DNA of 12,316 bases. Source: a virus. Of the stretch, positions 4,472 to 12,266 are shown piece after piece. The stretch's first letter is position 1; every line of letters begins with the position of its first letter. Under the pieces are notes generated by a model. It was not told the DNA's origin. It ran no database searches and was given only the letters and a program-made list of their open reading frames with translations. The stretch is from UHGV virus genome UHGV-0059442. One strand, written 5' to 3'. A program made the position numbers and the translations under genes.

Positions 4472-4575
4472 GCTGATACCTGTTGCGCCATCTGATTACG
4501 GGTGATCCAGAAGGCAATAACGGTCAGTAGATAAAAGACCAGGGTAATAGCCCACCCCGTCCAGCGCCAATCGCT
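4471..4575 (-). pseudogene. Remnant 3' end of the gene preceding lysB (lysA-like membrane protein), ~33 codons
   Basis: Reading the minus strand in the frame whose TGA overlaps the lysB ATG (ATGA) gives ...DWRWTGWAITLVFYLLTVIAFWITRNQMAQQVSA*, a hydrophobic helix tail. The frame is closed by a stop about 35 codons upstream and there is no start, so only a C-terminal stub remains. Confidence 0.4.
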
Positions 4576-5084
4576 TTATGCAGACGCGCCCGTGACTGGT
4601 CCGGCATATCCAGACCGTCTGTCAGCTCCAGCGTCTGCAACAACAGATCGGCATCAAAGCCGGTGGCGGCAAGCATTGCGCTCTGCGCGGCGTCTGCCAT
4701 TTCCTCTGCCAGCACGGTCTGCACGTTGCGGTTACCCAGCGGCATCACCCAGCCATGACGCAGGGCATGACGCCCGATCTCCAGCGCCCCGGCATAATCT
4801 CCGGCATCAATGCGCCACAGCATCACGTACATCAGCACGTCATCCTGTTGAGCGCCTCCGGCAGCCAGGACACCCTCTGCCCAGGCGGCGTACTTCGGCA
4901 GCAGCTCCACCTTGATTTCCGCTTTTTTGACCGTGGACTGAACGCCCTTGAGACGGCGGCGGTCTTCCGCCAGTTGCAGCAGCATCAGGTCATAGCCCGA
5001 TGCGTGGCGAACACTGCCGCCCTCGCGGGCGGCCTGTTCAGCCTGAACGCGCAGGCGATGCTGCCGTGCGGGACTCAGGCTCAT
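4524..5084 (-). pseudogene. M: Terminase endonuclease (small) subunit M, C-terminally truncated
   Basis: MSLSPARQHRLRVQAEQAAREGG...LLPKYAAWAEGVLAAGGAQQDDVLMYVMLWRIDAGDYAGALEIGRHALRHG... matches P2 gpM over about 175 aa, then ends in a non-matching tail (...GRGGLLPWSFIY*) at 186 aa; P2 gpM is about 250 aa. Confidence 0.8.
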
Positions 5085-5087
5085 GGA

Positions 5088-6146
5088 TTACGCTCCGGTT
5101 TCGGCTGCGGCGGCGCTGAAATCACCAATCTGGATGTTTTCCACCAGTGCGGCGCAGCGGTAGTCCTCAACCACATAGGCTTCATTAACGGATTCAAAGT
5201 TTTCAATCCGGTCACGTTTCGGGTTGTCGATAACTGAACGGCGGCGGGTGTCTTCCTGCCAGTAGATGGACAGGTTATCCAGACGGGTGATCAGCAGCGC
5301 ATTCGGCGGGAAGAACGGCGCACGCACGGCCTGCAGGCCACCCATGCGTTTCTGGCTGATGATCATATCGGCAGCCAGTTTTTCACTGTTTTCCTGCTCT
5401 TTGTTGACCAGCGGGAAATACTTGTCAGACAACAGTTCACGACCGCAAATCACCACCAGATCGTCATCGTCCTGGTAAACCACGTCGATAAGCTCATTGA
5501 CGGCATCCATCACCACAGCGTCCAGGTTGGCATATTCGCCACCTTTCCCGACTTTCACCGCACCCGGAGTGGTTTCACCGCCCGTGGTGGTGCTGCCCAT
5601 GACGTGATCCGGTGCATCCTCACGGATTTTCTGCAGCCAGCCTTTGTTCACATCCTGCAGCAGCGGGTTTTCGCTACGGTTGGAGGTTTTCGCACGCTTC
5701 ACGCCGTTAAAGCCGATCATGATGCGGTCCAGTGCCTGACGTTTCACGATGGCGTCACGGATGCGCACCTGGAAATCCTGAAACTTCGCCCACAGATCCA
5801 GCTTCGCGTAGGTCAGCACCGTGTCAAAGTTGGTCTGCTCGCATTTATATTCCACATCGACCATCAGGGTCGGATCGACGGGTTCACGCTCTTTCGCGGT
5901 GGTGTCAGTGGTTCCGGCAATGGTGCTGCCAACACCCAGCCCCAGCAGCTGACCGGACTGCTCAGTCACTGGCGTGACGTTAATCAGCGTCAGGAAAGCG
6001 GCGGACTGCTGGATCTGGTCCTCCAGCGTCTGCTGCACAGACGGCTCCACAGTGAATTTGCTGGACAGTTCTTCAACTGCCACACCGTTCAGACGCGCCA
6101 GCTGCTGCAGGTAAGCGTTAAAAGCAAAGCGGGTATTCTTCTTCAT
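5088..6146 (-). CDS. N: Major capsid protein N
   Basis: 352 aa, size and sequence typical of P2 gpN; immediately downstream of O, with its stop 3 nt before the M start. Confidence 0.9.
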   Translation of the reverse strand: MKKNTRFAFNAYLQQLARLNGVAVEELSSKFTVEPSVQQTLEDQIQQSAAFLTLINVTPVTEQSGQLLGLGVGSTIAGTTDTTAKEREPVDPTLMVDVEYKCEQTNFDTVLTYAKLDLWAKFQDFQVRIRDAIVKRQALDRIMIGFNGVKRAKTSNRSENPLLQDVNKGWLQKIREDAPDHVMGSTTTGGETTPGAVKVGKGGEYANLDAVVMDAVNELIDVVYQDDDDLVVICGRELLSDKYFPLVNKEQENSEKLAADMIISQKRMGGLQAVRAPFFPPNALLITRLDNLSIYWQEDTRRRSVIDNPKRDRIENFESVNEAYVVEDYRCAALVENIQIGDFSAAAAETGA

Positions 6147-6162
6147 CGGGTTTTGTGCTCCA

Positions 6163-6996
6163 TCAGCAATTGGTCAGAGTGTCAGCGGGGGCGTTACCGC
6201 CTGTTGCACGCTGGCGGTAGTCCTGGCGGCTGTCTACATGACTCAGCTTATTCACCAGTTCGTTAAAGGCGGTCTGCTGTGCCTGCAGGGCAGTCTCCAG
6301 CTCAGACAGACGTTCTTCCTGCTCAGACAGGGATTTTTCGGTGCGTGCGCTCAGGTTCTGCTGCTCAGTGGCGACCAGCTCCACGGCCTTATGCACATCA
6401 GAGAACCGGGCGTCATCGGACTGCTCTTTTTTGGTAAACAGCGCCGTGACGCGGGCAAACAGGGACGGTTTGTCGTCCTGGACTTCTTCCAGTTCGATCA
6501 CCGTTTCCTCTGCGGCGGTAAAGAGATTGGCGGGATTCTGCTTGCGGTTTGCCAGCGGGTTATGGGCTGCACTGGCGCTGAATGTCAGCATTTCAGTGCC
6601 CAGACTGGCAGGGTCATCAGTGGCAGCCAGGCCGACCAGGTAGGCTTTGCCCGTATCAGCGAACTTCGGGCTGACTTCCATAGAGGTGAATAATTTCTGG
6701 CCTTTTTTCACCAGCTCCACCAGGGACTCCGTTGGCTCAACGTCGGCATACAGCGCCATCTTGCCTGCCAGCGGACCTTCCGTGATTTCTTCAGCAAACA
6801 GCGCCGTCACCTTGCCGTAGCGGTTAAAGGTGCTGTCCGGCAGATAAGACTTGATGTGCTCAAGGTTAATCAGCGCGGTATACACCGCCGGGTTATAGCT
6901 GGCTGCCATCTGTTCCAGCCATTCACGCTGGATTTCGCGTCCGTCGGTGGTGGCACCTTCCACCCCGATGCGAAAACGCTTTGCTTTCACTGTCAT
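6163..6996 (-). CDS. O: Capsid scaffolding protein O
   Basis: 277 aa; FRIGVEGATTDGREI...INLEH...YLVGLAATDDPASLGTE...SDDARFSDVH...ATGG...TNC closely resembles P2 gpO; GGAG SD about 9 nt upstream of ATG at 6996. Confidence 0.9.
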   Translation of the reverse strand: MTVKAKRFRIGVEGATTDGREIQREWLEQMAASYNPAVYTALINLEHIKSYLPDSTFNRYGKVTALFAEEITEGPLAGKMALYADVEPTESLVELVKKGQKLFTSMEVSPKFADTGKAYLVGLAATDDPASLGTEMLTFSASAAHNPLANRKQNPANLFTAAEETVIELEEVQDDKPSLFARVTALFTKKEQSDDARFSDVHKAVELVATEQQNLSARTEKSLSEQEERLSELETALQAQQTAFNELVNKLSHVDSRQDYRQRATGGNAPADTLTNC

Positions 6997-7009
6997 GAGC
7001 CGTGCTCCG

Positions 7010-7432
7010 TTAGAAAAAACTTACTGGAGCCTTATGGTTGCGGTGATAGGGGCAGTGAAACAATGCGCGGTATTTGTACCGACAACCGTGACGATTGAGA
7101 TACAGGAAATATACCGCTTTCATGAAATCAGTAATTTCAGTTGAGTAATTAAACTCCTGCCTTATGTTGTAATAAGCTACCTCCCTGTTTGCGATCTCAA
7201 ATAAAACTCTGGCGCGAGATATAAACGATTCACAATCAGCGGCAACCTTTTTATAGAGGTTGATTAAATCAGGATTAATATCCGCAACCAGATAGCTGGG
7301 GTAATCCGTCTCCATCATCACAGCACAGGAACCCGCGAAAGGTTCAACCAGTCGCGGGCCAGCAGGAAGGTGTTTTTTCAGTTCGGACATAATGGCGGTT
7401 TTATTTCCCGCCCATTTCAGGATGGTGCTCAT
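7010..7432 (-). pseudogene. dam: DNA adenine methyltransferase (Dam, D12 class), N-terminal ~120 aa only
   Basis: From the internal Met: MSTILKWAGNKTAIMSELKKHLPAGPRLVEPFAGSCAVMMETDYPSYLVADINPDLINLYKKV...FLYLNRHGCRY... carries the AdoMet-binding motif (EPFAGS) and aligns with the first part of E. coli Dam, but the ORF ends at 7010 without the catalytic DPPY motif. Start ATGA-overlaps the upstream traR-like gene. Confidence 0.8.
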
Positions 7433-7656
7433 ACAGCACCTCCGTTGTAATGTTTGCCTTTCAGCTCTGCGATTTCCTGACAGGTAATGCAAAGCTGCAC
7501 ACCTGGAATGGCGCGGCGGCGTGCTGGCGGAATTGGCGCTTCACACTCAATGCAAAGCACGCGGGACACGCCCGGCGTTTTGGCACGGGCAGCACGGATA
7601 TGGCGCTGGCGTTCTTCTTCAACGCGCTGCTGTACAAGATCCATTGCATCAGCCAT
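7429..7656 (-). CDS. TraR/DksA-family C4 zinc-finger protein (phage early region)
   Basis: 75 aa with CIECEAPIPPARRRAIPGVQLCITCQ (C-x2-C-x17-C-x2-C); AGGAG SD upstream of ATG at 7656. Confidence 0.7.
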   Translation of the reverse strand: MADAMDLVQQRVEEERQRHIRAARAKTPGVSRVLCIECEAPIPPARRRAIPGVQLCITCQEIAELKGKHYNGGAV

Positions 7657-7889
7657 TAGTGGATCTCCTGCGCTTCGTTCTGGATTGCTTCAGCAGTTAC
7701 ACGCAGTAGTTCTGCTGCTTCGACGTGGTTTAGCTGGCGGGATGTGATATGACACGCCAGGCTATCAAGGCGAGCTGCCATTGCTTCAGCCCTTGCCCGG
7801 CGTTCTTCCAGACGAGCCTCTGTCAGTAAAATATTAAGCCCTGCATCATCCGGTCCGGTTTTAGTCGTGAGGGTTTCAATATTACGCAT
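7656..7889 (-). CDS. Hypothetical phage early protein
   Basis: 77-aa ORF from the ATG at 7889 with AGGAG SD about 8 nt upstream; Ala/Arg/Glu-rich, helical-looking; no family recognised. Confidence 0.45.
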   Translation of the reverse strand: MRNIETLTTKTGPDDAGLNILLTEARLEERRARAEAMAARLDSLACHITSRQLNHVEAAELLRVTAEAIQNEAQEIH

Positions 7890-7956
7890 AATCAATTCTC
7901 CTGAATTTAGATAAAGGGATACCCGGCGGGTTTACGCCATTAATTTCATTAGTTGG

Positions 7957-8298
7957 TTAATTCGGCATGGTTAGCCGTCTTGGAAATAAGCTCACCACTG
8001 CACGAAAATGATTCATTGCTTTAATCAACTCCCGCTTTTCGTCAGTGGTCAGCTCATTAATGCTGATGCTATGACGTTCAGCTGGAATTTTTGCCATAAA
8101 GAATATAGCAGCCAGTGCCCGTTTATTTTGTTCGTTATTGATATCCCGTGGATCACGCATATCTTTAATAAACCGCTCAAGCTCTGACTCAATATTCAGG
8201 CCAAATACTTTCGCCCTTAACTCCGCAATATGGTTAAGTCCATTCAGGCGTTCACCGGGGCTTAATGGAACAGTCGCCGCAGCGCCTTCAATAGCCAT
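7957..8298 (-). CDS. Hypothetical phage early protein
   Basis: 113-aa ORF with a G-rich SD before the ATG at 8298; no family recognised. Confidence 0.45.
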   Translation of the reverse strand: MAIEGAAATVPLSPGERLNGLNHIAELRAKVFGLNIESELERFIKDMRDPRDINNEQNKRALAAIFFMAKIPAERHSISINELTTDEKRELIKAMNHFRAVVSLFPRRLTMPN

Positions 8299-8462
8299 TT
8301 GTTCCCCCGTTTTTTCGTAGATAGTTCTGCCAGCAATTCATCTTGTGAACGGCACGGATGCCAGCGTTTACCATCCTCCCCCATGATCCAGCCGTGACCG
8401 TAGTGCATTGCCGGGCTTTGTTTTACCAGCAGCGATGCAAATGATGGTTCTTTCGTCAGCAT
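8262..8462 (-). CDS. Hypothetical phage early protein (position corresponds to fil/dhr of phage 186)
   Basis: 66 aa if started at the ATG at 8462 (GAGGTG SD 5 nt upstream, 7 nt after the cII stop); Cys/Trp/His-containing small protein. Confidence 0.4.
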   Translation of the reverse strand: MLTKEPSFASLLVKQSPAMHYGHGWIMGEDGKRWHPCRSQDELLAELSTKKRGNKWLLKALRRLFH

Positions 8463-8469
8463 AAGCACC

Positions 8470-8979
8470 TCACAGCAAACCGAATGACGCACCGAGGCCA
8501 GTTACAGTATCAACTGCACTTGCCATCGCAGGATTAGCCTGTAAACGGGCCTGCAATGAAACAGCCGCCAGCGCCATCAGTCGTGTTACAGAGTTAATGC
8601 TGCTGATAGCATCACGACGACCTGCACTGGTTTTTACATCGCCAGATACCGCACCTGCAGCAACACGCCCGATCTCTGCAGTTGCACTCATGACGTAATG
8701 CGGCAGTTTCTCTTTTGCCACCTCATTAATCGGAACACATGGCAGACAATGAATCTGTGCCAGAAAACCGTCTACCAACGTTGAATCTTCAGTCAGATCG
8801 GTAAGCAACCAGATTTCTGGTGCGGTGAGCTGATGCGGTTGATCTGGATTGAGTTTGTTTCGCAGTGTCTGAACATTCATTCCTGCACGTTCTGCCAGCT
8901 TTGCCATATTGTGACGTAGTGCAAAAGCTCTACAGGCTTCATCAAAATGCGGATGTTTGGAAATCTTGTAATCAAACAT
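8470..8979 (-). CDS. cII: CII-type lysogeny-establishment regulator (phage 186 CII family)
   Basis: 169 aa; MFDYKISKHPHFDEACRAFALRHNMAKLAERAGMNVQTLRNKLNPDQPHQLTAPEIWLLTDLTEDSTLVDGFLAQIHCLPCVP... matches my recollection of 186 CII nearly along its length, including the HTH. Confidence 0.8.
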   Translation of the reverse strand: MFDYKISKHPHFDEACRAFALRHNMAKLAERAGMNVQTLRNKLNPDQPHQLTAPEIWLLTDLTEDSTLVDGFLAQIHCLPCVPINEVAKEKLPHYVMSATAEIGRVAAGAVSGDVKTSAGRRDAISSINSVTRLMALAAVSLQARLQANPAMASAVDTVTGLGASFGLL

Positions 8980-9011
8980 GCTGCCCCCTTAGAAAGTTCT
9001 CATAATTGAAC

Positions 9012-9260
9012 TTAGTCACCAACGATGACATTAAAGTTGAAATTGGATTGGCCCATGTTTTTCCTGACTTGTTCCTTTTTGTACTCAAGGTAACGTATAC
9101 ATACTCTGTCTTTCGGTTTTTCTTTTCTTTCCAAGAATTTAGCGAGTTTACCATTATGAATCATTTGATATACCGAACCGCGAGAGCGGCCTTCCCATTC
9201 CGCGAACTCAGCTGGTGTCGCCATCACTTTTGGTACACGAATTGAAATGTCGTTGCTCAT
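9012..9260 (-). CDS. apl: Apl/Cox-type excisionase and lytic-switch regulator
   Basis: 82-aa first gene of the leftward early operon, divergent from cI; basic HTH-like small protein (...RGSVYQMIHNGKLAKFLERKEKPKDRVCIRYLEYKK...). Confidence 0.7.
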   Translation of the reverse strand: MSNDISIRVPKVMATPAEFAEWEGRSRGSVYQMIHNGKLAKFLERKEKPKDRVCIRYLEYKKEQVRKNMGQSNFNFNVIVGD

Positions 9261-9270
9261 AGTGCAGTAT
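9242..9270 (+). promoter_or_regulatory. Candidate lysogenic promoter pL for cI-int
   Basis: TTGAAA (9242-9247) - 17 nt - CAGTAT (9265-9270) on the plus strand inside the apl 5' end, facing cI. Confidence 0.35.
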
Positions 9271-9310
9271 CTCTCGATTAAGGTTTGGTTTACGTCGTTT
9301 TATCTTGTTT

Positions 9311-9364
9311 TATTTGATTCAATATTTGATACACCAAGATACTACGATCCAATATTTGATACGT
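9311..9364. repeat. Direct repeats of an ATTTGATA-containing motif (candidate CI operators) overlapping pR
   Basis: GATTCAATATTTGATACAC (9316-9334) and GATCCAATATTTGATACGT (9346-9364), 17 of 19 identical, 30 bp apart; a further TATTTGAT at 9311-9318. Confidence 0.5.
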
Positions 9365-9367
9365 CAA
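9339..9367 (-). promoter_or_regulatory. Candidate lytic promoter pR for apl-cII operon
   Basis: On the minus strand TTGACG (9367-9362) - 17 nt - TAGTAT (9344-9339); strong sigma-70 match, oriented toward apl. Confidence 0.5.
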
Positions 9368-9379
9368 CAGGATTAAAAA

Positions 9380-10012
9380 ATGATACAAGTAAAAGCTGGC
9401 GAGAATACAGGGGGAAGAGAGGCTATCCATAGGCTAATGGCAGCCTATGATTTCAAGTCCAGACAGCAACTTTGCGATCACTTGGGCGCATCAAAAAGCA
9501 CTATGGCAAACAGATACTTAAGAGATAGTTTTCCTGCAGAATGGGTGATTCAGTGCGCTTTGGAAACAGGAGTTTCTTTACTGTGGCTAACTACCGGACA
9601 GGGCGATCCAGGTTCAAACATTGACCCTAAAAGAAATATCAATTCCGTGAACTCTAGCAAAGTTAAACCTCTTTCGGAGCTTGTATCTCCTGAAATTGAC
9701 AAGGCAACTCTCAACGGAGGTTTGCTGATCGATGCTGGAAAAGCAATCATTGATAGCAGCATACTCCCCTCAGACTCAAGCAACCTGCTGCTGGTGACTA
9801 CTTCTGGTGATTCTTATTTAATAGATCGCAACCAAACACCACCAGTAAATGGTACGTGGTTAGTGGACATCGACGGGATAAAAAGCATTGTAAAATTGAC
9901 ACGACTCCCGGGAAACAGATTAGTAGTGCATCAGGATGATTCATCGTTTGAGTGCGAACTGGATGACATTGAGGTAATAGGCCGCGCACTGAAAATCATT
10001 AAGAGCCTTTGA
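9380..10012 (+). CDS. cI: CI-type immunity repressor (186-like, HTH N-terminal domain plus C-terminal domain)
   Basis: 210 aa; N-terminal HTH (SRQQLCDHLGASKSTMANRYLRDSFPAEWVIQCALETGVSLLWL); sits immediately upstream of int and divergent from apl. Size fits 186 CI rather than the ~100-aa P2 C. Confidence 0.8.
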   Translation: MIQVKAGENTGGREAIHRLMAAYDFKSRQQLCDHLGASKSTMANRYLRDSFPAEWVIQCALETGVSLLWLTTGQGDPGSNIDPKRNINSVNSSKVKPLSELVSPEIDKATLNGGLLIDAGKAIIDSSILPSDSSNLLLVTTSGDSYLIDRNQTPPVNGTWLVDIDGIKSIVKLTRLPGNRLVVHQDDSSFECELDDIEVIGRALKIIKSL

Positions 10013-10013
10013 T

Positions 10014-11036
10014 ATGACCATCAGAAAACAGCCGAACGGAAAGTGGTTATGTGAATGCTACCCAAACGGGCGAGATGGCAAACGCGTACGCAAACAATTT
10101 GCGACGAAAGGCGAAGCCATTGCGTTTGAGAATTTCACCATGGACGAGGTAAACAAGAAACCTTGGCTAGGAGAAAAAGAAGATCGGCGACAACTGTCAG
10201 AAGTGATTGAGCAGTGGTATTCCCTGTATGGTCAGACACTCGCTGACCCAAAGCGTTTGATGGCAAAATTAAAAATTATTTGTACCGGTCTCGGCAATCC
10301 TATTGCCTCGGAACTGACAGCAGGTGATTTCACAAAATATCGGGAAGCCAGATTAAAGGGGGAGGTCAAAAATGAAGACGGTGTTTTCATGTCCCCCGTA
10401 AAACCTCGCACGGTTAATCTTGAGCAGCGTAACCTGTCATCTGTATTCGGCACATTGAAAAAACTAGGACACTGGTCAGCACCAAACCCATTGGCAGGGC
10501 TTCCAACATTTAAAATTGCTGAAGGTGAATTGGCATTCCTATCTCAGGAGGAAATTAAACGCCTACTTGACGCCTGCGCAAACTCTCAAAATCCAAGTCT
10601 GTTGATGATCGCAAAGGTATGCTTGGCTACCGGCGCGCGCTGGAGTGAAGCGGAAAACTTACAGGGCCACCAATTATCAAAATACCGTATTACCTATACA
10701 AAGACGAAAGGAAAGAAAAATAGGACAGTACCGATATCTCAGGCTCTCTATGACGAACTCCCCAAAAACAGAGGGAAGTTATTCACGCCATGCAGAAAGG
10801 CTTTTGAACGAGCGGTCAAACGGGCTGGTATTGAACTGCCTGAAGGTCAGTGTACCCATGTTCTGCGCCATACATTCGCCAGTCATTTTATGATGAACGG
10901 TGGAAACATACTCGTTTTGAAAGATATTCTTGGGCATTCAGATATTAAAATGACTATGATTTATGCACATTTTTCCCCTGATCATTTAGAAGATGCAGTA
11001 ACTAAAAATCCACTTTATTCGCTATTAAAGGACTAA
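10014..11036 (+). CDS. int: Tyrosine integrase (P2/186 family)
   Basis: 340 aa; C-terminal catalytic region ...HVLRHTFASHFMMNGGNILVLKDILGHSDIKMTMIYAHF... with conserved Arg, His-x-x-Arg and Tyr; ATG 1 nt after the cI stop. Confidence 0.9.
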   Translation: MTIRKQPNGKWLCECYPNGRDGKRVRKQFATKGEAIAFENFTMDEVNKKPWLGEKEDRRQLSEVIEQWYSLYGQTLADPKRLMAKLKIICTGLGNPIASELTAGDFTKYREARLKGEVKNEDGVFMSPVKPRTVNLEQRNLSSVFGTLKKLGHWSAPNPLAGLPTFKIAEGELAFLSQEEIKRLLDACANSQNPSLLMIAKVCLATGARWSEAENLQGHQLSKYRITYTKTKGKKNRTVPISQALYDELPKNRGKLFTPCRKAFERAVKRAGIELPEGQCTHVLRHTFASHFMMNGGNILVLKDILGHSDIKMTMIYAHFSPDHLEDAVTKNPLYSLLKD

Positions 11037-11039
11037 ATA

Positions 11040-12266
11040 ATGACTCTCCATCAAACTTTATCTAAAGAATTAAGAGATTTATTTGTTAGTATTTTAAGAC
11101 GTTCTCTTTTTCGCCCCCCCATCAAAATAAATGGGGATATAGTCTCTGATTTTTCAAACAGATGCGAGCAGTTCAAAGAGTGCCTAAATGAATACATTTG
11201 TGATAACAATAATGCTGCTTCCGAAAGAGTTAAGCCAAGAATTAAAACTATTGAAAAAATACAACATGGATTAACTAATTCTCTTAAAGCATTTTTATCT
11301 GGCGACATTAAAGGAGCCTACGATATTTTTGATGAAGTTTTATCATACCCTACTGTCTATAGACATCTAAGAAGAATATCCATTCCACTAAAAGAAATAT
11401 GTAATAAGCACAAGCCTTTATTCAGGGTAAGAAAGTCAGATAGACCAGTCGTAACAAGAAAGGAAATATTTCATATCCCATTCACTCATCGACATCTTGT
11501 CAATGCTCAACGCTACTCCGTTGCAGGTTTGCCATGCCTTTACTTAGGTTCATCTCTCTATATATGCTGGCAGGAAATGGATAAACCTGACTTTGATAAA
11601 TTATACCTATCATCATTTATATCTTGGGATGAGGAATCTTATATTTTAAATTTAGCTGCAGATTTTCTTTACAGTAGAACCGCTAAAGGATTTTACGGTG
11701 ATATTAGTAATAGAGATAACCTCATTAAAATATCATATTTAACTTTATGGCCTCTGATAATTGCATGTAATTATTTAAAGCAGAATGAAAACTCTTCATT
11801 TAATCAAGAATATATCATCCCAAATTTGTTAATGCAGTGGATAAGTCGACTTGAAGATAGAGCTATTGTCGGCATAGCATATCGCTCAACAAAAATAAAA
11901 AGAACAGCAAACTCACACTTAGCAACTAATGTCGTCTTGCCTCCAAAAGTAAACTATGAAGATACAATCACAAAACCTTATTGTCAGAAACTATTGTCAA
12001 TGTTTGAGTTTACTCAACCTGTATCATGGCAGGTTTTGAAAACATTAGACTATAAAATTGATAATGAAATAAATCAAGAGCAAGAAAAAGCAATTCATTT
12101 ACTAAAACAGAAAGAAAGATTAAGTGGCATACAAGATTTAAATGAAGATCTTATAAACCTTTATCCTTTAACAGACTTCTACAAGCTAGAACAGTGCATG
12201 GATCGCCTGCTACAGTATGATGTACTTGAGATAAAATCTGGCGGCACTTTGGCGGCAGAGCATTAA
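11040..12266 (+). CDS. RES-domain protein with N- and C-terminal extensions (putative standalone toxin/defence effector)
   Basis: 408-aa ORF, ATG 3 nt after the int stop; strongly AT-rich. Central region shows RES-domain hallmarks: LFRVRK..., AQRYSVAGLPCLYLGSSLYICWQEM (compare the G-R-W-N...P-x-L-Y...E core of RES toxins) and the C-terminal motif IAYRSTKIKRTANSHLATNVVLPP (compare ...PSA...N-x-V-L). About 125 aa upstream and 100 aa downstream of the RES core are unassigned. Confidence 0.6.
   Translation: MTLHQTLSKELRDLFVSILRRSLFRPPIKINGDIVSDFSNRCEQFKECLNEYICDNNNAASERVKPRIKTIEKIQHGLTNSLKAFLSGDIKGAYDIFDEVLSYPTVYRHLRRISIPLKEICNKHKPLFRVRKSDRPVVTRKEIFHIPFTHRHLVNAQRYSVAGLPCLYLGSSLYICWQEMDKPDFDKLYLSSFISWDEESYILNLAADFLYSRTAKGFYGDISNRDNLIKISYLTLWPLIIACNYLKQNENSSFNQEYIIPNLLMQWISRLEDRAIVGIAYRSTKIKRTANSHLATNVVLPPKVNYEDTITKPYCQKLLSMFEFTQPVSWQVLKTLDYKIDNEINQEQEKAIHLLKQKERLSGIQDLNEDLINLYPLTDFYKLEQCMDRLLQYDVLEIKSGGTLAAEH

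Follow-up and report, generated by a model that had tools for sequence, protein, structure and literature searches.

A probable phage-186-type lysis/lysogeny control region, apparently intact within a heavily deleted prophage

Genes at the locus

The DNA studied here, referred to as the window, is a stretch of 12,316 nucleotides from the virus genome UHGV-0059442 of the UHGV collection; its features are listed in Table 1. On the plus strand, cI encodes an immunity repressor of the 186 family with two Pfam domains, Phage_CI_repr (PF07022, E=6e-31) and Phage_CI_C (PF16452, E=4.8e-28), which also matches the structure of the 186 CI protein (PDB 2FJR, E=3.5e-25). The int gene and an open reading frame (ORF) of 408 codons follow, with 1-3 nt between genes. 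The product of this ORF had neither a PADLOC nor a Pfam match. No plus-strand terminator-like site was found across cI, int, and the 408-aa ORF, the counts in the terminator scan being at or below the shuffle expectation. Because of the 1-3 nt gaps and the lack of such a site, the ORF probably belongs to the operon of the lysogenic promoter, pL.

On the minus strand, apl and cII are followed by genes for Fil, a DUF5347 protein, a DUF2732 protein, and a DksA-like protein, as identified with Pfam and PHROGs, and by a truncated dam gene. Beyond dam lie genes for the capsid scaffold O, capsid N, small terminase M, R, S, V, W, part of J, a remnant of D, and Ogr. Rfam and tRNA searches of the whole window returned nothing.

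Table 1. Position of genes and of proposed regulatory elements in the window
Feature	Position	Strand	Description
dam, truncated	7492-7010	-	160 aa; Pfam/PHROGs; directly followed by GPO
Deletion junction	7084..7087		fuses truncated dam to capsid scaffold gene O; ~9.4 kb missing
cII	8470..8979	-	169 aa; PF06892, E=2.2e-44
pE/CII-site region (proposed)	~8950-9012		GGATGTTTGG...AATCAAACATG plus the CATAAT-containing palindrome 8993-9012, conserved in all clades
apl	9012..9260	-	82-aa Cox-like excisionase/repressor; first gene of the pR operon; phrog_575, phrog_6912
pL (lysogenic promoter, predicted) -35	9242..9247	+	TTGAAA; within apl codons 5-7; invariant in clade A
pL -10	9265..9270	+	CAGTAT; weak, 3/6; 5-10 nt upstream of the apl ATG
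Three direct repeats G(G/T)TTTA(C/T)	9287..9313	+	starts 9287, 9297, 9307; 10-bp spacing; between pL and pR; likely Apl operators
Distal CI operator (putative)	9316..9332		GATTCAATATTTGATAC; core TCAA-N3-TTGA at 9319-9329; covers about +1 to +17 of pR
pR (lytic promoter, predicted) -10	9339..9344	-	TAGTAT; 17-nt spacer as in 186 pR; mean minor-allele fraction 0.007
GATC (Dam site)	9346..9349		pR spacer positions 13-16, within the proximal operator
Proximal CI operator (putative)	9346..9362		GATCCAATATTTGATAC; core CCAA-N3-TTGA at 9349-9359; fills the pR spacer; nearly invariant in clade A
pR -35	9362..9367	-	TTGACG; near-invariant in 50 unique clade-A sequences
cI	9380..10012	+	210-aa 186-family immunity repressor; SopEPhi-type N-terminal domain; PF07022, PF16452
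FL-like CI operator (candidate)	9614..9624		TCAAACATTGA; inside cI, linker-coding; 265 bp from the proximal operator
int	10014..11036	+	Pfam Int_N + Phage_integrase; directly downstream of cI
408-aa ORF	11040..12266	+	phrog_7835, function unknown

Predicted promoters and their conservation across the family

The initial annotation had described two promoters facing each other in the interval 9242-9379, one directed at apl (TTGACG-17-TAGTAT, minus strand) and the other at cI (TTGAAA-17-CAGTAT, plus strand), with starts about 55 bp apart. Both were found where they had been placed and, with start sites set 7 nt past each -10 (at ~9277 on the plus strand and ~9332 on the minus strand), the gap is 55 bp as claimed. 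The lytic promoter, pR, agrees with the consensus at 9 of 12 positions and was called by a promoter scan. The lysogenic promoter agrees at 8 of 12 and was not called, because its -10 matches at only three of six. In the region 8900-9700 there were two promoter-like matches against 2.2 in shuffled sequences, that is, the chance frequency, so consensus matching alone proves nothing; homology and conservation, not the consensus score, are what support the two predicted promoters.

Comparison with the annotated 186 record, in the same orientation, gave closely corresponding distances. From the pR -35 to the cI ATG there are 12 nt in the window and 14 nt in 186, and the pR spacer is 17 nt long in both. 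The pL -35 (TTGCGA in 186) lies 13-18 nt inside apl in both cases, and the pL -10 occupies the same place ahead of the apl start; the 186 version, CATGAT, likewise matches the consensus at only three of six positions. The pL regions align as TTGAAAtgtcgttgctCATagtgCAGTAT in the window and TTGCGAtttcagaagcCATattgCATGAT in 186. Since the distances to the apl and cI starts correspond, the two promoters can be regarded as positional homologues of 186 pR and pL.

A survey of genome and viral contig collections yielded 339 usable loci with CI homologues, grouped into clades A (the type of the window), B (Fels-2-like), E, and G (the 186 clade) and the singletons C (locus L006) and D (locus L018). The promoter arrangement was present in 337 of the 339 loci, across four CI groupings and with CI identity as low as ~31%. 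It consists of TTGNNN, 10 nt, CAT (the apl start), 4 nt, and CANNAT, faced by TTGACG or TTTACT, 17 nt, and TAnnnT; the pattern CAT-N4-CANNAT likewise occurs in 337/339 loci. The predicted start gap is 55 bp in all clade-A rows among the matches listed (132 of 134 loci), 53 bp in most of clade B, 49 bp in most of clade E, and 63-64 bp in clade G; for 186, the initial annotation gives a distance of about 60 bp. The window is thus a typical clade-A member.

For a finer comparison, 82 clade-A loci were reduced to 50 unique sequences of the 173 nt upstream of cI, which align without indels. In these, the -35 and -10 elements of both pL and pR, as well as the whole proximal repeat discussed below, are invariant or nearly so.

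Deletions and integrity of the switch

The element had initially been called a dead prophage, a view borne out by blastn against the complete 35.5-kb Klebsiella phage Kp4845-2 (35,561 bp). The window aligned with this relative in four colinear blocks, separated by three internal deletions of ~9.4, 1.9, and 10.1 kb that add up to ~21 kb of lost prophage, with overlaps of 3-6 bp at the joins. The 9.4-kb deletion is that of the dam-O junction, where window 4562-7087 corresponds to Kp4845-2 17567-15042 and window 7084-11018 to 5609-1675. By synteny with Fels-2, whose dam-to-O interval holds the A gene and TumB/DinI-like genes, it removed A, the TumB/DinI region, Q, and P. The SOS-controlled Tum antirepressor is thus presumably missing from the window along with the dam-to-O interval. 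The replication, portal, terminase, and tail regions, part of dam, and lysis/L were deleted, and most tail genes are gone.

Within this prophage the switch itself appears complete. The region 8900-10100 is 99.9% identical to that of Kp4845-2 and 80-83% identical to those of SEN8, MLG42, and SopEPhi. Seven viral contigs encode a CI that is 100% identical to that of the window, and seven other loci carry an identical copy of the 173 nt that precede cI, comprising the intergenic switch and the 5' end of apl. No disabling changes were seen in cI, apl, cII, int, or any of the cis elements, and every element of the switch is intact, with the same sequence as in full-size relatives.

Such a state might also be found in an inert relic, still intact only because the deletions are recent, in which CI is unexpressed or its expression is irrelevant. 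The loss of ~21 kb in three deletions and the intrinsically weak pL, with a -10 of 3/6, are compatible with a relic, and selection on this particular copy cannot be demonstrated; the lack of disabling changes in genes and cis elements alike, and the full identity of CI to its copies in other viral contigs, speak against it. Moreover, a remnant without CI would no longer repress Fil, an inhibitor of cell division, and this is a reason to expect that the repressor is retained. The relic explanation is considered unlikely. The remnant probably still makes repressor and silences the remaining lytic genes, and the proposal that the switch is still functional agrees with all of the sequence evidence.

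Proposed CI operators at pR

Two 19-bp direct repeats had been reported to overlap the -35/spacer and the initially transcribed region of pR. Repeats do exist at these places, at 9316-9337 and 9346-9367, the right-hand one overlapping the pR -35 and spacer; they are 86% identical over 22 nt, start 30 bp apart, and have in common the exact 13-mer CAATATTTGATAC. With three mismatches allowed, GATYCAATATTTGATAC matches only at these two sites in the window, and the same holds for the complete 35.5-kb relative. The chance expectation was 0.07 for the window and 0.13 for the relative, and two matches occurred in 0/200 and 0/100 shuffles, respectively.

The description as direct repeats had to be revised, and the elements are better seen as interrupted palindromes, GATYCAA-N3-TTGA. 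In the distal repeat, clade A conserves only GATYCAA (9316-9322) and TTGA (9326-9329); the centre (9323-9325), the 3' TAC (9330-9332, minor-allele fraction 0.47), and the flank (9314-9315) are variable. From this column variation, the functional unit would be TCAA-N3-TTGA, an interrupted palindrome flanked on one side by a conserved GAT. The look of a long direct repeat is, by the same comparison, specific to this lineage.

Assignment of these elements to CI follows from how they vary. The 17-nt pR spacer is a different near-palindrome in each CI clade, namely ATCTTGAATCAAGAT in C, GATCACTTTAAGTGGTC in D, GATCGCACAGTGAAATC in E, and ATCTCCCAATTGAGAGAT in 186, and compensatory changes in its arms occur within the 186 clade. 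The proximal repeat has the position of the central 186 pR operator, which is that same 186 sequence. Different CI clades have apl alleles and GTTTTAT repeats (see below) in common. As the pR repeats vary with the type of CI repressor and not with the apl allele, they are proposed to be CI operators. Two observations weigh against this operator model: the CI recognition helices are almost identical between clades with differing operators, and the distal operator is far more variable among relatives than the proximal one.

The operator centres are 30 bp apart in the window; the scan gave 30 bp also for clade D and 29 bp for clade E, and a hand count gave 30 bp for clade C, whose distal site the scan did not flag. 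Three pR operators two helical turns apart, the wheel-binding arrangement of 186, were not found, the two sites at pR being centred 30 bp apart. No third operator was found between the pR -35 and the cI ATG, where the 12 nt are poorly conserved and not operator-like. The segment 9155-9176 (68% match) was rejected as a third operator; it belongs to a conserved coding part of apl, carries just the right half of the motif, and occurs whatever the CI clade.

Direct repeats, as the elements at pR were first described, are typical of Apl/Cox operators. In 186, the Apl protein recognizes direct repeats spaced by 10-11 bp in the interval from pR to pL, at seven sites (PMC7498355), with a footprint that reaches the pR -10 (PMC7498355; 186 record). 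It is nevertheless very improbable that the pR repeats bind the Cox-like Apl protein rather than CI, as they change with the CI N-terminal domain, with the same apl alleles accompanying different repeats, lie 30 bp apart instead of 10-11 bp, and are each internally palindromic. A better fit to Apl is offered by a separate set, the three GTTTTAT-type repeats between pL and pR, constant across CI clades. This cluster of 10-bp-spaced G(G/T)TTTA(C/T) repeats is the sole one in the window and in Kp4845-2, and it is kept in all clades that share this apl type, regardless of CI type. The three repeats are likely Apl operators, judging from their spacing and conservation. The att site lies outside the window; in Kp4845-2, only a loose T-rich periodic cluster is seen beyond int, at 1412-1433.

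On the pR strand, both repeats read TATCAAATATTGR, which differs by one mismatch from the consensus for the host protein IHF, WATCAANNNNTTR. IHF is used by 186 at attP (186 record), but IHF sites at pR are highly unlikely, given that other CI clades have at these positions unrelated sequences unlike the IHF consensus, that a further copy of the element lies within cI, where 186 has its FL operator, and that the literature examined holds no known IHF role at 186 pR.

The initial proposal of a 186-like, face-to-face pR/pL switch with CI operators at pR is in agreement with the gene content, the promoter positions, and the repeats that track CI type. The interval 9242-9379, with CI operators proposed at pR, is very probably the control region of a phage-186-type lysis/lysogeny switch belonging to the SopEPhi/SEN8 (SopEPhi/Fels-2) immunity group. 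It is not novel in kind, since this immunity type has already been sequenced in SopEPhi, SEN8, MLG42, and many prophages of Klebsiella and E. coli. The switch of the window appears to be a regular, apparently intact member of a known family, kept inside a heavily deleted prophage.

Operator-like sites away from pR

Inside cI, the sequence at 9614-9624 is a perfect TCAA-N3-TTGA, expected 0.03 times within +/-700 bp and 0.2 times in the whole window. Across 76 unique cI genes of clade A, all but 2 of the 94 fourfold-degenerate third positions vary, and A9616 is one of the two that do not, in a codon that varies among S, P, T, and A. The amino acid thus changes while the fourfold site stays the same, which indicates that DNA, not protein, is constrained at A9616. 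As a control, the same scan with the 186 B-type half-site recovered the known FL (+277.5) and FR (-400.5) sites of that phage. On the basis of sequence and position, 9614-9624 qualifies as a good looping-site candidate of the FL type. Near-matches to the core at 9743-9753 and 9941-9951, also within cI, are probably due to chance; their synonymous positions vary freely.

At the position of FR, by the apl stop, there is a palindrome, AAGTTC-N8-GAACTT (8993-9012), that is identical in all CI clades and contains CATAAT. Since it is the same in every CI clade and holds the likely -10 of pE, this palindrome is not specific to the CI type of the window, and no convincing FR-type site specific to that type was found. 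The palindrome and the GGATGTTTGG...AATCAAACATG sequence align with 186 pE and FR. The region containing ATGTTTG, together with the CATAAT hexamer, aligns with 186 pE and is conserved, and CATAAT within 8993-9012 is the likely pE -10 by this alignment.

Upstream of ogr (~838-801), TCAATATTGA and GTATCA...TGATTC are operator-like and might have corresponded to pB of 186, which is repressed by CI. This reading was rejected because Fels-2, with a clade-B CI, has the same sequence, whereas Kp4845-2, with a CI identical to that of the window, does not.

A Dam site in the predicted lytic promoter

Of the 261 loci of clades A-E, 255 have a GATC sequence at pR spacer positions 13-16; the 78 loci of the 186 clade all lack it there. 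The position is kept across at least five heteroimmune operator types, between which the surrounding spacer, the -10, and the base that follows GATC differ; by the author's reading, the operator palindrome is displaced by half a bp to one bp from clade to clade and GATC remains fixed. The clade-A proximal operator has CCAA in place of TCAA, and the C concerned is the last base of GATC and is invariant. A dam gene lies ~2 kb downstream in the pR operon in 210/240 loci of clades A, B, and E with enough flanking sequence, compared with 3/68 in the 186 clade. The sequenced SopEPhi (AY319521) has AATC instead of GATC at this site.

Perhaps GATC 9346-9349 acts as a sensor of Dam methylation, altering CI binding or pR strength, so that dam expressed from the pR operon would form a feed-forward lytic lock, although this idea is more doubtful than probable. 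Excision of SopEPhi is reported in a review to be favoured by Dam methylation through an unidentified target (Alonso 2005, as cited in PMC7380047), and the pR GATC could be that target. The GAT might also be simply a shared base set of the operator half-site. The co-occurrence of dam and GATC was not accepted as evidence of coupling; it is strong at the clade level, where it amounts to one phylogenetic contrast, and has exceptions in both directions.

Proposed mechanism

Sequence, positional homology, conservation, and covariation with CI type, as reported above, lead us to infer promoter activity, CI and Apl binding, interference, and immunity along the following lines. A strong leftward pR would drive apl, cII, fil, and the other remaining early genes, and a weak rightward pL, with its -35 inside apl, would transcribe cI, int, and the accessory gene for 408 aa; the two transcripts would converge from starts ~55 bp apart. 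CI dimers would bind the two copies of GATYCAA-N3-TTGA, one in the pR spacer and the other over the pR start, and a third site inside cI, 265 bp away, at the position of 186 FL. Occupancy by CI would shut off pR and, by analogy with 186, free pL from transcriptional interference; CI would thereby maintain expression of its own gene, of int, and of the cargo gene, again by the analogy with 186. The probable binding sites of Apl are the three GTTTTAT-type repeats that lie between the promoters.

The initial annotation had also suggested that CI control extends to the cargo linked to int. The cargo gene downstream of int would be read from pL, and by analogy with 186 its dependence on CI would be indirect, through relief of interference from pR, and not a matter of CI repression.

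With its replication, portal, terminase, and tail regions gone and, by synteny with Fels-2, the antirepressor region too, the remnant probably has a switch fixed in the repressed state. CI would then be produced from pL with pR off, and Fil and the fused early-late transcript would remain silent. The remnant would give immunity to phages of the same immunity type.

It appears, then, that a gutted prophage can retain a complete, apparently working repressor module. Such a module would confer superinfection immunity, silence toxic early genes such as fil, and let int and the accessory gene, whose function is not known, be expressed from pL. The comparison further provides an operator model for this immunity group, GATYCAA-N3-TTGA, with two putative sites at pR and one in cI.

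Comparison with known systems

The switch resembles the P2 C/Cox (Pe/Pc) system in having face-to-face early and lysogenic promoters 40-60 bp apart and a Cox-type first lytic gene (PMC7498355; PMC3448106). The P2 C protein is a small repressor acting on non-palindromic direct repeats, and P2 is without CII (PMC2995052; PMC3448106). The 210-aa, two-domain CI, the presence of cII, and the internally palindromic sites do not fit a P2-type C/Cox switch.

Among the closest systems are those of the Salmonella prophages SopEPhi, SEN8, and Fels-2, the Yersinia phage MLG42, and the Klebsiella phage Kp4845-2, full-length phages or prophages of the Peduoviridae with a CI of the 186 type, in contrast to the deleted prophage of the window. 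SopEPhi, SEN8, MLG42, and Kp4845-2 share with the window both the N-terminal domain of CI and the proximal operator, whereas in Fels-2 the layout is the same but CI, of clade B, and the operators are different. The 408-aa ORF after int is present in the window and absent from Kp4845-2.

With 186 itself, the window shares the gene order and protein families, and the predicted pR and pL face each other at matching distances from the apl and cI starts. In both, a palindromic sequence, the proposed CI operator of the window, fills the 17-nt pR spacer, a distal operator (a candidate in the window) lies inside cI ~270-300 bp away, direct repeats at about one helical turn are found between the promoters, as for Apl, and a CII-dependent pE region, here proposed by alignment, is located at the apl/cII junction. 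The differences concern the operator sequence, which is unrelated, and the proteins, with 32% identity for CI and 29% for Apl. The gap between the pR and pL starts is 62 bp in 186 and 55 bp in the window. The interdomain linker of CI is longer in the window than in 186 (sequence comparison; PMC3448106).

Two further features appear to depart from the 186 paradigm. In 186, three pR operators are two helical turns (~20 bp) apart (PMC3675496), whereas the window has two putative ones 30 bp, or three turns, apart; such a spacing would imply a CI-DNA geometry unlike the 186 wheel. The second is the invariant Dam site in the predicted lytic promoter: GATC in the pR spacer and dam in the early operon are both present in the window and missing from 186.

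The switch region

The spacer of pR, the lytic promoter, carries a GATC at a fixed position (window 9346-9349) in 255 of 261 loci, drawn from five heteroimmune clades of the CI repressor; among the loci of the phage 186 clade, 0 of 78 have GATC there. Compared clade by clade, the motif goes together with a pR operon that includes dam. The site may be a Dam-sensitive operator or promoter. The predicted recognition-helix region of CI, SKSTMANRYLRDSFPAEWVIQCALETG, is near-identical among clades with unrelated pR operator sequences (alignment A1, CI of clades A-E), and immunity specificity could be set by the N-terminal arm or helix 2 of CI.

The copy of the proposed CI operator core found inside cI includes a fourfold-degenerate site that is conserved while the encoded amino acid is variable. 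This copy is a candidate counterpart of the FL looping operator of phage 186. A second cI stretch with low synonymous variation, ATATCAATTCCGTGAAC (9636-9652), contains the other invariant fourfold site, position 9649, which lies 30 bp from the centre of the FL-like copy.

The cluster of direct repeats between pL, the lysogenic promoter, and pR occurs nowhere else in the window or in Kp4845-2, a complete Klebsiella phage, and is kept across CI clades having the same apl type; these repeats are likely to be operators of Apl.

Features located in the window
Feature	Position	Location	Details
Small ORF annotated as DNA-ligase-like, with its neighbours	50-532 and 559-822	left end	ORF: phrog_2561; weak PADLOC PDC-S48 match
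Deletion junctions versus Kp4845-2	1411-1416, 4562-4564, 7084-7087		~10.1, 1.9 and 9.4 kb missing
Conserved stretch GGATGTTTGG...AATCAAACATG	8950-9012	apl/cII junction	
6-8-6 palindrome AAGTTCTCATAATTGAACTT	8950-9012 region	apl/cII junction	CATAAT within
Three G(G/T)TTTA(C/T) direct repeats	9287-9313	between pL and pR	spacing exactly 10 bp
Operator core TCAAACATTGA	9614-9624	inside cI	perfect copy
408-aa ORF	11040-12266	start 4 nt after int	phrog_7835, function unknown

Deletions and flanking regions

At all three deletion junctions the blast coordinates of the window and Kp4845-2 overlap by 3-6 bp, which suggests a microhomology-mediated origin. At the third, a truncated dam is fused to capsid scaffold gene O with both genes pointing the same way, and therefore pR read-through across this fusion would enter the late genes.

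Beside the DNA-ligase-like ORF lie a late activator of the Ogr/Delta zinc-finger type and what is left of a D gene. The operator-like TCAATATTGA upstream of ogr was rejected, its distribution not tracking CI type. The left end of the window matches Escherichia phage 500465-1, and because the matching end abuts smpB in that phage, integration at ssrA is suggested.

Pfam and PADLOC searches returned no match for the 408-aa ORF. Kp4845-2 lacks this ORF, and E. coli F95 has it in the equivalent position. Within the ORF is a third perfect TCAA-N3-TTGA (11997-12007), adjoining promoter-like sites at 12036-12077. The ORF can be likened by location to 'orfY' of SopEPhi, which has the same position, the DNA match being only 52 bp.

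The apl/cII junction does not differ between any of the CI clades examined. Its conserved stretch resembles the CII site of phage 186, and its position corresponds to that of 186 pE and FR.
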